Sequence record: OR995200.1
DNA length: 64,000 bases
Direction: 5' to 3' (one strand)
Source of the DNA: Escherichia phage JY01
The position numbers and the translations under genes are program-made. Position 1 is the first letter of the stretch. Each line of letters begins with the position of its first letter. The notes beneath the pieces are model-generated. The model did not search any database. It worked only from the letters and a program-made list of their open reading frames with translations, and was not told the DNA's origin. Positions 58,861-64,000 of this stretch are shown here, in pieces.

Positions 58861-59388
58861 TTATGCGAGTACCGTCTTTAACCGTTCTTCAAATTTCCGA
58901 AGAGTGTTCTGGCGTTCAGCTCTTTGCTTTTTGTAAGTTTCAATACGCTCTGAAATGAGAGTGTATCGTTCATTTACTGATTCTTTCATAAAATCAGGAA
59001 TTTCACGAGAAGCTTTAATCTCATCAAATTTATCAATAACAGCTTGCTCTTCAGCAATTAAGTTATCATACATTAAAATATCTTTCTTGATGAACTCAAT
59101 ATCTTCTTGAGTTACACGAGATAATTTAGATGCTTTATCCTTTTTGTACTGTTCGTTAGTATCACGAGACCAGTGTAATGTACGATTTTTATTCGTATTT
59201 TTGTAAATTTCTACAATACCAATTTCATCAATAATAACGATCCAATTCCAACGGGATTTGTAAATTTGTCCTCCATCAACAGTGATTTCACCTCCGATTG
59301 AGATGTCGTTAAAGAACTTGCTTTGTGCTTCAGATTTAAATTTACCATCGTTGTAATTTACCAAGTTGAAAATATCTTTAGCGTTCAT
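58861..59388 (-). CDS. Hypothetical protein (175 aa)
   Basis: Track ORF trimmed to the ATG following the leader GGAGGAACAGAAA. Charged, helical C-terminus. Confidence 0.5.
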   Translation of the reverse strand: MNAKDIFNLVNYNDGKFKSEAQSKFFNDISIGGEITVDGGQIYKSRWNWIVIIDEIGIVEIYKNTNKNRTLHWSRDTNEQYKKDKASKLSRVTQEDIEFIKKDILMYDNLIAEEQAVIDKFDEIKASREIPDFMKESVNERYTLISERIETYKKQRAERQNTLRKFEERLKTVLA

Positions 59389-59413
59389 TTTCTGTTCCTC
59401 CGTAGTTGATAGT

Positions 59414-59447
59414 TGTATAGTACCACAGAGGAACAGTCTTGTAAACA
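59414..59447 (-). promoter_or_regulatory. Early promoter cassette
   Basis: GTTTAC, spacer, TGTGGTACTATACAACTATCAACTACGGAGGAACAG. Confidence 0.5.
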
Positions 59448-59448
59448 A

Positions 59449-59763
59449 CTAAAAGAAACTTCTTTCACAATTTTTTCCACTGAACCAAGCGCTCACTGCT
59501 TTCTTAGTCTCAGGAGCAGTGTTATCCATAAACCATTCAAAGGCAGCCTTTTTATGATTCTGGAGGGCTTCTCGGGCTTTAATCTGCTCACGGTCTATTA
59601 ACACTAACATATGAGCCTTTCTTGTCACCAAGGGCTTCTTATGATTCTTGGAGTATTCCCAGTCATTTGTCCAACGCATTGTCGTTGCGAACTGAAATAC
59701 TGCTTCTTTAATTTTAGTTTCGTAAATTTCACGAGCCTTTGAGTATAACATCATTACCTCCAT
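59449..59763 (-). CDS. Hypothetical protein (104 aa)
   Basis: ORF whose 3' end runs into the promoter cassette. Start uncertain. Confidence 0.35.
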   Translation of the reverse strand: MEVMMLYSKAREIYETKIKEAVFQFATTMRWTNDWEYSKNHKKPLVTRKAHMLVLIDREQIKAREALQNHKKAAFEWFMDNTAPETKKAVSAWFSGKNCERSFF

Positions 59764-59852
59764 TTACCAGTTTAATTCTAGTCATCTTTTTGATGGCAGT
59801 CCATATAATCTATTTCTGAACTGCCTTTTTGTCATAGAAGGCCTCTTATGAA

Positions 59853-60821
59853 TTATTTCAGAAGAGTAACCTCAGCAATTTCTTCCCAACCGTTTTTGTC
59901 GGTCATAATAAAGTCAGCAAGATAAAGAGCAGTACGCAGTGAAACATTGCGTAAACGATTAACATTGACTTTCATCCATGATAATGCTTTATAAGTTTCT
60001 TCATCAGAAAGACCGCGCTTTTGCATCATGTCAGTTGAAAGAATAACATCTTCAACCCTGACCATAATTTCTTCATTAGTGTGAACACCCAAATCCAAAT
60101 AAACTGAGCGGGACACTAATGCTTGTAAATGTGGAGCAAGTTTAGTACCACGGTCTAATTCGCGGTCAATGTCAACGTTTGTGATAAAAACAATCGTTCC
60201 TTTAAATTCAAACTCACGCTCAATGCCTTTTTCTTCTAAGTAAGAAGATGCAGTGCTCCAGCAGACTTTACGGGTCTCTCCAGTGTCCAGAGCGGCTTTT
60301 AGAAGATTAAGAATATCCATATCAGAGAAAACATCCACATCATCAATCAAAAGGACAGAATTCTCTTCACGATTATTCCAAAGCTGCTCATAAAGACCGA
60401 TACCGGAGATTTTACCGTTAATGCTTTTATATTCAATGTATCCAATATCATTTGCTTTATTTAAAGCTTTATCTAAAGAATACGTTTTACCAATACCTGC
60501 TGCACCAGAGATAATTAATGAACGAATGTTTCCGTTAATAATACCATTCGTCATCATTCCCATAACATTAAATCTTTTATTAATGCGGGTTTTCATATCT
60601 TCATACGATTCTTTAACTTCTTCAACTTTTACACCATCATATGAAATGTCTGATTTGTAAACCCAAACACCGCGACGTTTACCGTCAATTTCAACAAAAA
60701 CTTTACCATCTCCTTGTGCATCTACCGGAGCATTATCTGGGAACCATTCGCCTAAGAGCTCAAAAGTTCCAGAGATTTCTTTACCGAAGTAGATACCCTT
60801 ATTGATAGTTACAGTTTTCAT
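59853..60821 (-). CDS. AAA+ family ATPase (322 aa)
   Basis: Walker A SGAAGIGKTYS and Walker B VLLIDDVD. Track ORF trimmed from the TTG in the leader to the ATG. Confidence 0.6.
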   Translation of the reverse strand: MKTVTINKGIYFGKEISGTFELLGEWFPDNAPVDAQGDGKVFVEIDGKRRGVWVYKSDISYDGVKVEEVKESYEDMKTRINKRFNVMGMMTNGIINGNIRSLIISGAAGIGKTYSLDKALNKANDIGYIEYKSINGKISGIGLYEQLWNNREENSVLLIDDVDVFSDMDILNLLKAALDTGETRKVCWSTASSYLEEKGIEREFEFKGTIVFITNVDIDRELDRGTKLAPHLQALVSRSVYLDLGVHTNEEIMVRVEDVILSTDMMQKRGLSDEETYKALSWMKVNVNRLRNVSLRTALYLADFIMTDKNGWEEIAEVTLLK

Positions 60822-60856
60822 TTTATTCTCCAAATCTGTATCAGTAGTTGATAGTT

Positions 60857-60889
60857 GTATAGTACCATAAAGCTTTATGATTGTAAACC
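60857..60889 (-). promoter_or_regulatory. Early promoter cassette
   Basis: GTTTAC, spacer, TATGGTACTATACAACTATCAACTACTGATACAGATTTGGAGAATAAA-ATG. Confidence 0.55.
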
Positions 60890-60907
60890 GTTTTGTGAAA
60901 AATTTTT

Positions 60908-60932
60908 GAAATAAAAAAGGGAGCCCGAAGGC
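60908..60932 (-). terminator. Rho-independent terminator
   Basis: GGGAGCC-UUCG-GGCUCCC hairpin followed by TTTTTTATTT on the minus strand. Confidence 0.6.
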
Positions 60933-60938
60933 TCCCTA

Positions 60939-61952
60939 TCATTTATAATAACTTCGGTGGTTTTCAAGATAGACCTTCTCAAGGAAGTCATCCCAGAAAC
61001 TCATGTCTACTGTTTTAGGCATACCGTTCTTAGAAGCTTCAGTAGATGCTGCTTCTACTTGATCGACCACATCTTCTAAAAACTCTTGAACCGTTTTAAA
61101 TGGATGCTTACCCAACTTCACGTCGAGAATAAATGGAGCGTCTTGAAGTGGATAAATCAAGTCGCCAGTTTTGTAAATTTCCAATAGTTGAAGTCCACCA
61201 CGACAGGCATGACTCAGAGCTTTCCAGTCAATGCCTTCATTGGCTTCGGCCTTACGAGCACGTTCACCATATTCAGCATCTAATTTGTTCAGTGACTGCT
61301 TAAGCTCAATAAGAGAAAGCGTTGTCTGATATTTACGACCCAATACAGTGTAGAACGTTTGTGGACCTGTTTTCTCATGATTATGGAATACCCATTCACA
61401 GAACTCGTTTTCTGGAAGACGATGCTTAATATCTTCAATTTTAGTGCGACGTTGTCCTTGTGTTCCATCTTCTCGGTAGACATTCCGTTGATCAGGAATT
61501 TGATTAACTACTTTCAATACATCACGTAATGCAGCCAAACGAGAACCCTTGACACCGTATTTAGAAGCTTGCTTGCGGACATATCCTAAATAGGATTTCA
61601 TGTTAGTCGTATAAAAACGAGAACGGTTGTCTTGAATAAACTTCCACACATCAGGCAAATCGGATTTAACCACTAGTTCAGGTGGAGTGTGAAGCATATC
61701 CAATGCTACAGTTTCACCATCTGCTGCTAATTTAAAGAAATATTTAAGACTGTATAGTTCATGGTCAATATCATCTTTAGTGTTTTTAGATGATGTGTTG
61801 TTAGTGTTTTTACTCATATGCTCTTTAACATTTCCGATAAGAATATCGCGAGCACGAGGAACAAAGATTTCTTTAAAATCTACATCAGATTCTGGAGTAG
61901 AAGTTCCATAAAGATGACTACCAAAATAGCTTTTCATTACTGTTTTCATCAT
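60939..61952 (-). CDS. Nucleotidyltransferase-motif protein (pol-beta / MNT-type), 337 aa
   Basis: N-terminal FGSHLYGTSTPESDVDF fits the GS-x(9-13)-DxD nucleotidyltransferase signature. The rest of the protein is not recognised. Confidence 0.5.
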   Translation of the reverse strand: MMKTVMKSYFGSHLYGTSTPESDVDFKEIFVPRARDILIGNVKEHMSKNTNNTSSKNTKDDIDHELYSLKYFFKLAADGETVALDMLHTPPELVVKSDLPDVWKFIQDNRSRFYTTNMKSYLGYVRKQASKYGVKGSRLAALRDVLKVVNQIPDQRNVYREDGTQGQRRTKIEDIKHRLPENEFCEWVFHNHEKTGPQTFYTVLGRKYQTTLSLIELKQSLNKLDAEYGERARKAEANEGIDWKALSHACRGGLQLLEIYKTGDLIYPLQDAPFILDVKLGKHPFKTVQEFLEDVVDQVEAASTEASKNGMPKTVDMSFWDDFLEKVYLENHRSYYK

Positions 61953-62410
61953 TCAGCCTTATATTCAATAACAGGACATACTTTAGCTTTACGGGCTTTT
62001 AAAAATTCGACGATAATAGATTTCTTGGGTTGAATAGGAGGTAAACCTTTATACGCCCTATCAATATTTTCTACATGTAAAGCATAATCCTTTTTCCATT
62101 TATAATCTTTATATTTTTCATGCAGTTGTGCAGGAATAACAAATGAACCAATAATAAGTAAAACAAGCAAAATGGCAAGTATAAATGCTGATGGAATAAG
62201 AGTCCATAAACTACCAAAAATAAGCCATTTCTGCATGATTTCTGCACAGATAATAGTTAGACCTGCGAGTATAGTACATCCGAAAAAAGAAACGAAAAAT
62301 GTAGGAATAACAACAGACCAAAAATACGCGCATAGTGTCTTAGGTCGTTGCCATTCATCGTTAAACAATTTGAATAATTTATAGTGCCAAGAGTTTTCAT
62401 TAATAATCAT
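61949..62410 (-). CDS. Polytopic membrane protein (153 aa)
   Basis: Three or four hydrophobic helices. Stop overlaps the nucleotidyltransferase start by 4 nt. Confidence 0.5.
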   Translation of the reverse strand: MIINENSWHYKLFKLFNDEWQRPKTLCAYFWSVVIPTFFVSFFGCTILAGLTIICAEIMQKWLIFGSLWTLIPSAFILAILLVLLIIGSFVIPAQLHEKYKDYKWKKDYALHVENIDRAYKGLPPIQPKKSIIVEFLKARKAKVCPVIEYKAE

Positions 62411-62412
62411 AA

Positions 62413-62934
62413 TTATCCTTTCATTGAAGGCGTAACGGTTGTTAAATACTTAATCATAGCTTCAGCTTCTGATTTTGATAATGAAATTTCTTCATTGTTT
62501 TGACGAATAGAAATAAAATCCGGATGACGGTCACCACCAGCTTTTAAAACACACATATAAGTATCGACTTCGCCTTCAATATTTGAAATGATTGAAGCAG
62601 TTCCGCATGAATGTGGTTTTTGATAAATCAATACAGCTTTTCTTCCACCGTTTGACTGTTCATAGGCTTTTAATACATCAAGCAAATCAGTTCTTTTATC
62701 AATAGCTAAAATGTTATTTTCATCTTCAATGTTAAATCCTTCGGATACTTCATAAAGTGTTACCCATAAATCACCGATGTCAATAACAGCATTTACTTTT
62801 CCACGACTTTCAAGAGTATGACAAATTTTCTTGATTTCGTCATAACTCATTTTAATAATATCATCTCCTTGACTAAGGAAGATGTCATTTTTAAATTCAA
62901 CACGAATTAAACCGCTTCCACTTGAAATAAACAT
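62413..62934 (-). CDS. Hypothetical protein (173 aa), tandem paralog a
   Basis: C-terminal SKSEAEAMIKYLTTVTPSM resembles the end of the upstream 184-aa gene. Confidence 0.45.
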   Translation of the reverse strand: MFISSGSGLIRVEFKNDIFLSQGDDIIKMSYDEIKKICHTLESRGKVNAVIDIGDLWVTLYEVSEGFNIEDENNILAIDKRTDLLDVLKAYEQSNGGRKAVLIYQKPHSCGTASIISNIEGEVDTYMCVLKAGGDRHPDFISIRQNNEEISLSKSEAEAMIKYLTTVTPSMKG

Positions 62935-62940
62935 ATTTCC

Positions 62941-63495
62941 TCACTTTGAAATCATAGTTGGAATGACAGAATCAAGATAAGTCTTTAGTGCAATAGCTTC
63001 GTCTTTGGTAAATGTGACAATATGTGATCGAAAATCGTCAATTTGACGAATAGATACTATATCTCCCTCTTCATAGCATTTTGAAACATTTAAAATAGTT
63101 TCATCATTCTGATTACAGGAGTTAGTAATAATAGCATTACATTTTTTAAACCATTTTAAATTATGTTTTCTTTTAGTAGAATCATAAAAATATTTAATGT
63201 TAGTTATAAAATTATCCCAATTATTAATTGATAAGCACATTGACTCGCTTTTAATATTAAATCCTGGGCATGAAGAATAAAAATGAATTTTATGCTCATC
63301 ATTAATGCTTACAATTTTATCAGTGTAAGCATATTCAATTTGGGTTAAATGAACAATTTCACTAGACGTAAAATATAACATATCATCTTCTTGCGTCAAA
63401 CGATACATGTTATTTACTTTTTCTATAGCCAATTCACCAAAAAGCACACTATCTTCTAATACTAATCGTTTCATATTAATCCTTTTTATTGGCAT
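62941..63495 (-). CDS. Hypothetical protein (184 aa), tandem paralog b
   Basis: C-terminal TKDEAIALKTYLDSVIPTM. Confidence 0.45.
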   Translation of the reverse strand: MPIKRINMKRLVLEDSVLFGELAIEKVNNMYRLTQEDDMLYFTSSEIVHLTQIEYAYTDKIVSINDEHKIHFYSSCPGFNIKSESMCLSINNWDNFITNIKYFYDSTKRKHNLKWFKKCNAIITNSCNQNDETILNVSKCYEEGDIVSIRQIDDFRSHIVTFTKDEAIALKTYLDSVIPTMISK

Positions 63496-63754
63496 GAATT
63501 TGTTCTAAAATTTTAGAGTATTCCTTTGTATCAGATTTACGTACAATCGATACACTATACGGCATACTATCGGTGTCTTTTATAAAGCGTTCCAAATGAC
63601 ATTCTAATAAAATTTCTGGATTATAAATCGTGTACATCAAATTACCTGTTGCTCCACGATATTGACAGATTTCTACTGATTGAACACCATTCCATAATTT
63701 TGTTAAGACCAAATCACCTACTTCTAATTTAGGAAAGCCCATGTTATTCACCAA
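63476..63754 (-). CDS. Hypothetical protein (92 aa)
   Basis: ORF overlapping neighbours by a few codons. Confidence 0.4.
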   Translation of the reverse strand: MVNNMGFPKLEVGDLVLTKLWNGVQSVEICQYRGATGNLMYTIYNPEILLECHLERFIKDTDSMPYSVSIVRKSDTKEYSKILEQIHANKKD

Positions 63755-63929
63755 TTAAAGTTTCAATATAAGAATCAAGATTTACTTTAGCTTCTTCCAT
63801 AAGAGTTTTGTATTTAATCTTGTTGGCATGTCCGGAGAAAGCTGATTCATCAATAATTGTTGATGTATGAACAGCTTTACTATACGTCTCAATTAATTCT
63901 CTTAATTTAAAAGCCTGCTCACTTGTCAT
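63744..63929 (-). CDS. Hypothetical protein (61 aa)
   Basis: Small ORF at the window end. Confidence 0.35.
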   Translation of the reverse strand: MTSEQAFKLRELIETYSKAVHTSTIIDESAFSGHANKIKYKTLMEEAKVNLDSYIETLIGE

Positions 63930-64000
63930 TACATACTCCTTTGAATAATATCAATAATGTTGTTCACCAAATTATAAGTAAACATTGGGTAATTATATTG

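Follow-up and report, generated by a model that had tools for sequence, protein, structure and literature searches.

Positions 62413 to 63495 of the window, by which we mean the whole stretch of 64,000 nucleotides that was analysed, hold two genes of the T4 MobD.1 (Y05I) family, which are tandem paralogs over their full length and diverged long ago. The source of the window is a T4-like phage belonging to Tequatrovirus. The two open reading frames (62413..62934 and 62941..63495) are adjacent, both on the minus strand and separated by a gap of 6 nucleotides. They are listed here with the second one divided at its likely start:

62413..62934, minus strand: 173-aa MobD.1/Y05I paralog (open reading frame including the stop codon; GAGGA ribosome-binding site before the ATG)
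62941..63474, minus strand: T4 mobD.1 ortholog, 177 aa from its likely start (including the stop codon)
63475..63495, minus strand: upstream extension that gives the 184-aa reading, without a ribosome-binding site and probably untranslated

The best explanation that we can offer for the pair combines their paralogy, the architecture of the proteins and the roles proposed below for their modules; taken as a whole, we give it about an even chance of being right.

The sequence-only reading described the genes as a tandem paralog pair, and in this it was correct: besides being adjacent and on the same strand, the two proteins are homologous over their full length, contain the same two Pfam domains and belong to the same PHROG. 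BLASTP aligns residues 8–171 of the 173-aa protein with residues 20–181 of the 184-aa reading, with 25% identity over 170 aa (E = 2e-10). PF24449 (T4_y05I_N) is matched by the 173-aa protein with an E-value of 1.5e-33 (115.8 bits) and by the 184/177-aa protein with an E-value of 1.5e-40 (138.2 bits); for PF24448 (T4_y05I_C) the corresponding values are 1e-22 (80.7 bits) and 1.5e-21 (76.9 bits). Both proteins are thus above both of the curated Pfam cut-offs, which are 24.9 bits for PF24449 and 27 bits for PF24448. Both also match phrog_1502 from end to end (E = 6e-67 for the 173-aa protein). NCBIfam gave no match for either paralog or for three neighbouring genes. In shuffling tests, none of 2000 shuffles scored as high as the N-terminal halves alone (z 7.4), the C-terminal halves (z 8.0), the proteins minus their tails (z 9.2) or the tail alone, which scored 42 where the shuffles averaged 17.1 (z 6.5).

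These results show that the statement that the N-terminal parts of the proteins differ is wrong, since the N-terminal halves are similar on their own and both match PF24449. The similarity also reaches well beyond the short tail, as the tail-less remainder demonstrates, so that the paralogy stands and is stronger than had been assumed. The tail motif, in the form in which it was originally written, fits both ISLSKSEAEAMIKYLTTVTPSM in the 173-aa protein and VTFTKDEAIALKTYLDSVIPTM in its neighbour exactly. Identity between the paralogs is 24% in repeat 1, 24% in repeat 2 and 26% in the strands of the C-terminal domain (these elements are described below), and rises to about 40% in the tail; the tail is better conserved in degree, not in kind. 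The description of a conserved tail on a variable body therefore holds as a trend, the tail being the best conserved segment, and fails if it is taken to mean that the bodies are unrelated, because they are homologous.

The DNA gives an indication of the age of the pair. The tails of the two paralogs are only 52% identical at the DNA level, four of the nine residues that they share are encoded by different codons, and the longest word common to both genes is 13 nucleotides. The pair is thus an ancient duplication and not a product of gene conversion, and the motif is maintained at the protein level.

The 184-aa open reading frame most likely starts at its eighth codon (M8, ATG 63474), giving a protein of 177 aa. 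This ATG has an AAGGA ribosome-binding site 5 nucleotides upstream and lies one base after the TAA of the upstream gene, whereas the ATG at 63495 lacks a ribosome-binding site and lies inside the upstream gene; it is on these grounds that the later start is preferred. The PF24449 match starts at residue 11 of the 184-aa reading, and the records of SfPhi01 and ime09 annotate the mobD.1 ortholog as 534 nucleotides long. T4 mobD.1 and window positions 62916–63472 are 96.6% identical in DNA, and the proteins were aligned as well; the upstream, 177-aa gene is therefore the ortholog of T4 mobD.1. T4 mobD.1 corresponds to UniProt P39240, with the entry name Y05I_BPT4; the Pfam T4_y05I families are therefore named after MobD.1 itself.

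The 173-aa protein is 25–27% identical to MobD.1 and shares with the T4 protein (P39240; PF24449 and PF24448; phrog_1502) its domains, their order and its approximate length. The 173-aa gene is an old second copy, which is carried by most relatives and is absent from T4. We note that the names used in the GenBank record of ime09 are “mobD.1a” for the 177-aa gene and “mobD.1” for the 173-aa gene. T4 nrdC.8 (175 aa) was considered as a further member of the family and was rejected, as it fails to align with it; the nrdC.8 homolog in the window was missed both by phmmer and by the family profiles. These two kinds of search also found no additional family members elsewhere in the window.

The domains and tail motifs of the two proteins are located as follows:

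62650..62931, minus strand: N-terminal domain of the 173-aa protein, residues 2–95 (PF24449; two predicted sheet-plus-helix repeats)
62422..62631, minus strand: C-terminal domain of the 173-aa protein, residues 102–171 (PF24448)
62422..62487, minus strand: tail motif ISLSKSEAEAMIKYLTTVTPSM of the 173-aa protein
63175..63465, minus strand: N-terminal domain of the MobD.1 ortholog, residues 4–100 of 177 (PF24449)
62953..63162, minus strand: C-terminal domain of the MobD.1 ortholog, residues 105–174 (PF24448; five strands and a helix)
62953..63018, minus strand: tail motif VTFTKDEAIALKTYLDSVIPTM of the MobD.1 ortholog

The structures of both proteins were predicted using AF2. The model of the 177-aa protein, made from a 30-sequence alignment, has a mean pLDDT of 87.9 and a pTM of 0.62. 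It places strands in residues 3–35 followed by a helix at 37–45, strands in 53–83 followed by a helix at 86–101, and strands in 104–156 followed by a helix at 157–170. The predicted arrangement is thus four strands and a helix, twice over, and then a third repeat with five strands and a helix. The pLDDT is approximately 90–96 in the N-terminal domain and 76–90 in the C-terminal domain. The model of the 173-aa protein, which had a shallower alignment, has an N-terminal domain of the same kind, with four strands and a helix occurring twice (pLDDT approximately 80–92). Its C-terminal domain is poorly modelled (pLDDT 40–60), and the structure of that domain therefore rests on homology to the 177-aa model.

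In these models, the protein looks like three copies of one unit, two of which form the N-terminal domain and one the C-terminal domain. This suggestion is also based on hhalign, which links repeat 1 to the final 40 residues of the C-terminal domain (probability 91%, E = 9e-7), and on DUF7189 in Pfam, which has weak matches to repeat 1 of the family member P0050 and to repeat 3 of the 173-aa protein. The detectable relationship between repeats 1 and 3 suggests that internal duplication gave rise to the repeats. There is also a faint echo of the tail motif near the N-terminus (IKMSYDEIKKICHTL compared with ISLSKSEAEAMIKYL). The tail motif itself comprises the last strand, the helix and the VIP(T/S)M end of the C-terminal domain, and is a signature of the whole family.

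The family is small. When 1.84 billion representative proteins were searched with a profile at a threshold of E ≤ 0.001, only 28 clusters were found. Full-length members are 173–196 aa long, and about a dozen of the clusters are stand-alone C-terminal domains of 65–87 aa. Conservation across the aligned family is highest in the tail, which reads roughly [FL][TS]KxEAxAL..YLx[ST]VIP[ST]M. The stand-alone T4_y05I_C proteins of the Tevenvirinae (phrog_7763 and phrog_10804; for example in SEA1 and KP13MC5-5) have the same C-terminal domain and tail motif and come from the same genomic block as the full-length proteins, but they lack the N-terminal two-repeat domain. Within the rI-to-nrdC.11 block, three genes of this kind are present in Salmonella phage SEA1 (Gelderlandvirus) and a single one in a Klebsiella Jiaodavirus. 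It is therefore clear, from the existence of the stand-alone clusters and of these syntenic genes, that the C-terminal module is autonomous. Copies of the 173-aa type with at least 90% identity are found in about 430 phage records, and genes of the MobD.1 type in about 720.

The paralog pair is located in the variable rI-to-nrdC.11 accessory block, on the strand of the early genes. At least 80% of bases 61900–64000 are matched by 118 phage records, whose names are mostly those of E. coli or Shigella phages, and Shigella phage SfPhi01 is 100% identical to the window over these bases. The annotation of SfPhi01 led us to expect an open reading frame for a homing endonuclease beside nrdC.10; there is none in the window, so the two phages differ outside the stretch that was compared. 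The following features surround the pair:

61949..62410, minus strand: gene for a 153-aa predicted membrane protein, the downstream neighbour (phrog_944; “RB69ORF104c” in ime09)
61954..62915, no strand assigned: segment without a T4 counterpart (blastn of the window against T4, and T4 annotation)
63476..63742, minus strand: gene for a tudor-domain phage protein, 88 aa from ATG 63742, the upstream neighbour (PF24144, E = 2.8e-40)

The correspondence with T4 runs through nrdC.11, which is 93.7% identical to window positions 60801–61953, and resumes at mobD.1. The segment in between holds the gene for the 153-aa membrane protein and most of the 173-aa gene, and these two genes constitute one cassette. 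In its place T4 has the HNH homing endonuclease gene mobD, whose insertion site is described as lying between nrdC.11 and mobD.1 (PMC2988022). The 173-aa gene thus occupies a known site of a free-standing T4 homing endonuclease (PMC2988022), with the difference that the site carries the endonuclease in T4, whereas in the window it carries the membrane-protein gene and the paralog, and no endonuclease. On the other side of the pair, the tudor-domain gene is also absent from T4, according to the blastn comparison of the window.

Comparison of alleles indicates that the genes have exchanged material. The 173-aa protein and the family member P0009 are 34–46% identical in the N-terminal part and 80–83% in the C-terminal part, and MobD.1 and P0040 are 38% identical in the N-terminal part and 100% in the tail. 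The mobD.1 allele of phage JK1 encodes a protein of 48% identity; its DNA cannot be aligned up to approximately codon 133 (around position 63075) and is 95% identical thereafter. This mosaic boundary explains how diverged alleles come to have 100% identical tails, and the pattern of conserved C-terminal and variable N-terminal parts that is seen among alleles is at least partly recombination mosaicism. A further protein, P0011, is a chimera, with a MobD.1-type N-terminal part and a 173-type C-terminal part. It is encoded by the sole gene between the tudor-domain and membrane-protein genes on three contigs (L006–L008) from three sequencing runs. Relative to the window, the natural chimeras lack the following segment:

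62566..63096, no strand assigned: segment of 531 bases missing in-frame from the natural chimeras (chimera P0011)

In the chimeric genes, the opening stretch of mobD.1, approximately 126 codons long, runs directly into the final 50 codons of the 173-aa gene. The junction is at window positions 63097|62565, and the 531 bases lost amount to one repeat length of the tandem pair. The natural chimeras and mosaics show that recombination occurs inside the genes. Broken copies are found in T2 (AP018813), ECO4, fPS-90 and Bas43. An apparent variant of the 173-aa protein in T2, with 57% identity, was discarded, as it results from frameshifts in AP018813, the DNA being 95% identical. Since T4 manages with one copy and the records of T2 (AP018813) and ECO4 hold broken copies, these phages can do without the genes, under laboratory conditions at least.

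Estimates of dN/dS are 0.10–0.18 for the 173-aa gene and 0.28 for the mobD.1 ortholog, and both genes are under purifying selection. Together with the ribosome-binding sites, this marks the two as real genes. Supplementary data from time-resolved infection omics class T4 MobD.1 as early at both the RNA and the protein level, with mass-spectrometry intensities for the protein (PMC9697503). No functional study of mobD.1, of Y05I or of their Pfam families was found in the literature. Pfam labels the family as a putative transcription factor. The two paralogs have pI values of 4.9 and 5.5 and net charges of −8 and −5, and all full-length members of the family are likewise acidic, with pI values of 4.2–5.8 and net charges of −3 to −22. 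The residues that are conserved in the family are Q, D, E, G and hydrophobics; there are no conserved basic or aromatic residues in the sheets.

We propose that the C-terminal module could be the constant part of the protein, holding it to another copy of the same protein, to the paralog or to a single conserved partner, and that the faster-evolving N-terminal double repeat could be the variable part, which would recognize, early in infection, some target in the host or the phage. With two copies, two specificities would be available on one common module. The target would more probably be a protein than a nucleic acid, because the family is acidic and without conserved basic or aromatic surface residues. 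Recombination within the C-terminal domain, between the copies as well as with diverged alleles, produces the chimeras and mosaics. In this detailed form, with a constant C-terminal module, a target-recognizing N-terminal module and two specificities, we put the proposal forward tentatively and consider its chances to be somewhat less than even; a large share of the probability falls to mechanisms other than this one and the nucleic-acid binding discussed below. Several observations count against it: phages get by with one copy or with broken ones, at least in the laboratory; the C-terminal domain of the 173-aa protein is poorly modelled; part of the conserved-C, variable-N pattern among alleles comes from recombination, not selection; and the Pfam label of putative transcription factor points to nucleic-acid binding.

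Several other explanations for the pair have been considered. One is that the two proteins have only the short tail in common, owing to convergence or because it is a mobile C-terminal module, and that their bodies are unrelated. The greater identity of the tail (approximately 40%, compared with 24–26% elsewhere) and the occurrence of the C-terminal domain alone in other phages would fit with this, but it is hard to reconcile with N-terminal halves that are similar in isolation (z 7.4, with 0 of 2000 shuffles as high), with a z of 9.2 for the remainder without its tail, or with the fact that both N-terminal halves match one Pfam domain at E-values below 1e-33. The Pfam matches and shuffling tests already refute this explanation, and we regard it as having almost no chance of being correct. 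A second proposal, which sees the duplicates as passengers that have no function and are in decay within a hyperplastic region, draws on the absence of the 173-aa copy from T4, on the fragmentation of both genes in T2 (AP018813) even though the DNA is 95% identical, and on the N-only or C-only fragments in ECO4, fPS-90 and Bas43. Against this, dN/dS is 0.10–0.28 among intact copies, which are present in about 430 records for the 173-aa type, with about 720 for the MobD.1 type; the T4 MobD.1 protein is detected early in infection (PMC9697503); and several genera keep the family at the same genomic place. We consider decay to be very improbable. It is a little easier to imagine that the tail is conserved through a constraint on the DNA, which could be a promoter of the following gene embedded in the sequence or a block of homology for the exchange of cassettes. 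For T4 mobD, the promoter is reported to be situated within the 3′ part of the gene upstream (PMC2988022), and in the window the 3′ part of mobD.1 is predicted to hold a promoter-like site (63085–63056) and a small hairpin (63049–63035). The JK1 mosaic boundary (around 63075) and the chimera junction (63097) also fall within this part of the gene, and MobD.1 and its 48%-identical allele have 100% identical tails. However, the two paralog tails in the window have diverged to 52% DNA identity, with different codons at four of nine shared residues, and the stand-alone C-domain proteins of distant phages keep the same peptide motif. An explanation at the DNA level can therefore apply to the alleles but not to this pair, and overall we think it improbable.

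The explanation that deserves most attention among the alternatives is that the proteins are binders of single-stranded DNA or of RNA resembling Pur-alpha and PC4, as the Pfam label suggests. The two N-terminal repeats would then make up an intramolecular PC4-like domain for nucleic-acid binding, and the third would dimerize with another molecule in the way that PUR repeat III does. Janowski and Niessing describe type I and type II PC4-like domains within one protein, a combination reported only for Pur-alpha (PMC7549692). The topology predicted here matches type I followed by type II, with two units of four strands and a helix that are joined by a linker, and then a further repeat, and the order of elements, two four-strand-plus-helix repeats and then a third, is that of the Pur-alpha/PC4-like class (Whirly, MRP1/2, PC4). 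A Foldseek search of the PDB with the first model gave, by top probability and lowest rmsd, 2nvn (0.94), 2it9 (0.92), repeats I–II of human PURA in 8chv (0.77–0.84) and SsgB in 6slc (0.51), and with the second model it gave Drosophila Pur-alpha (3k44_B) with a probability of 0.90. In SCOP, 2it9 and 2nvn presumably share their fold with PC4 and Whirly. In one GenBank record the 173-aa protein is labelled “putative SSB protein.” These points have to be set against the quality of the matches, since neither model gave a PDB match at E = 0.001 with Foldseek. The PUR matches have E-values of 0.055–0.26 and TM-scores of 0.29–0.39 (8chv, E = 0.16–0.26; 3k44_B, E = 0.055 with an rmsd of 21 Å), and with the second model cupin-type dioxygenases and Ctf4 score as well as Pur-alpha or better. 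When viral models were searched with Foldseek, the matches were members of the family and phage proteins that are uncharacterised; a few with other names fit poorly, with an rmsd of approximately 17 Å or more. In sequence comparisons, the PurA, Whirly and PC4 families gave no match up to E = 1, and searches of PDB sequences with both proteins and with the family profile gave nothing relevant. The repeats of the MobD.1 family are approximately 45–50 residues long, compared with approximately 70 in the Pur-alpha/PC4-like class, and the family is acidic and without sequence similarity to that class. At the sequence level the family has no conserved counterpart of the basic and aromatic sheet residues with which PC4 and PUR domains bind single-stranded nucleic acids: conservation falls on Q, D, E, G and hydrophobics, and the net charge of full-length members is −3 to −22. 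The repeat topology is present in prediction only, and the third repeat has five strands. The class is further defined by an exchange of helices between its two repeats. We therefore think it unlikely, though well worth keeping in mind, that these are nucleic-acid binders of this type. We take the resemblance to PC4 and PUR domains as a clue to the construction of the protein, and not as a statement of membership. It is conceivable, if doubtful to about the same extent, that the MobD.1 family is a miniature viral counterpart of Pur-alpha, in which the intramolecular domain of two repeats would be joined to a third repeat that pairs with another molecule, possibly the paralog or a stand-alone C-domain protein. 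If this were true, the family would be only the second known type of protein to combine both kinds of PC4-like domain.

We return to our preferred explanation, of full-length paralogs with a shared modular architecture. The similarity within the pair is genuine and not due to chance. The sequences, the family (in Pfam and PHROGs) and the names of the pair are already in public databases, and to this extent the finding is an ordinary one. What has been gained is, in part, correction: the homology of the paralogs extends from end to end, and the upstream protein probably has a length of 177 aa and not 184. The pair is now tied to a T4 protein that has been detected experimentally early in infection, although MobD.1 is one among many abundant early T4 proteins without a known role. 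For the family as a whole, the picture that emerges is one of a protein that appears to be built from three repeats, with an autonomous C-terminal module, whose copy number and architecture vary at one fixed place in the genome and which has given rise to natural chimeras.

The 61-aa gene stands two genes upstream of mobD.1, from which it is separated by a gene for a tudor-domain protein:

63744-63929, minus strand: 61-aa gene, a member of DUF7438 (PF24219)
within 63473-63917: tudor-domain gene (PF24144), 88 aa, start ATG at 63742

For the tudor gene, the 88-aa reading from this ATG was preferred and a 92-aa reading from a TTG was set aside. On related contigs, DUF7438 is matched by all four adjoining small genes of 57-67 aa (positions 1818-2731 of L006, which bears a chimeric single gene in place of mobD.1 and its 173-aa paralog), corresponding to the mobD.2a to mobD.4 positions together with the 61-aa gene; these genes are tiny paralogs in a tandem array. 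PHROGs annotates the 61-aa gene as 'helicase loader', a label that looks doubtful because the product is so small. With window 63473-63917 as reference, the mobD.1-mobD.2 interval of T4 contains neither the tudor gene nor the 61-aa gene, and in phage JK1 the 61-aa gene is present and the tudor gene missing.

Two hairpins were noted, together with a pair of genes whose public annotations conflict:

63035-63085, minus strand: promoter-like site and hairpin inside the 3' part of mobD.1
60918-60937: perfect, GC-rich 8-bp hairpin between nrdC.11 and nrdC.10
60939-61952: nrdC.11 homolog
59853-60833: nrdC.10 homolog

The site within mobD.1 consists of TTCAAA, 18 nt and TATAGT, followed by the hairpin TCGTCAAATTGACGA, the same palindrome that encodes the conserved IRQIDD motif. 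The chimera junction (63097) and the mosaic boundary of the JK1 allele (approximately 63075) are both nearby. This candidate element may be the reported promoter of T4 mobD, or else a shuffling hotspot. In the intergenic hairpin, the stem halves AGGGAGCC and GGCTCCCT enclose the loop TTCG, and the minus strand has runs of T. It resembles an intrinsic terminator or a hairpin that stabilises RNA.

The nrdC.11 and nrdC.10 homologs are variously labelled 'thioredoxin', 'helicase loader', 'nucleotidyltransferase' and 'MobD molybdopterin-guanine dinucleotide biosynthesis protein'; precomputed Pfam hits match the nrdC.11 homolog to RlaP (PF10127), and those of the labels that refer to molybdopterin and thioredoxin seem to be mistakes inherited from gene names. 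Immediately downstream of nrdC.10, where window 59136-59855 was compared with L002 3237-3956, Shigella phage SfPhi01 has a gene annotated 'DNA endonuclease'; its place in the window is taken by ORFs resembling nrdC.9 and nrdC.8. The window therefore does not match SfPhi01 along its whole length, and a mobile endonuclease gene sets the two apart.

The AlphaFold2 model of MobD.1 is partly superposed by the BFVD hits W5QUU7, J9PU62, W5QU96 and G9B1Y1 (rmsd 3.3-5.5 Å; TM at most 0.56 on target), which are uncharacterised proteins of 120-185 aa from Bacillus phages (BPS10C, BPS13, W.Ph.). On these model comparisons, the MobD.1 repeat fold may be broader among phages than the MobD.1 sequence family.
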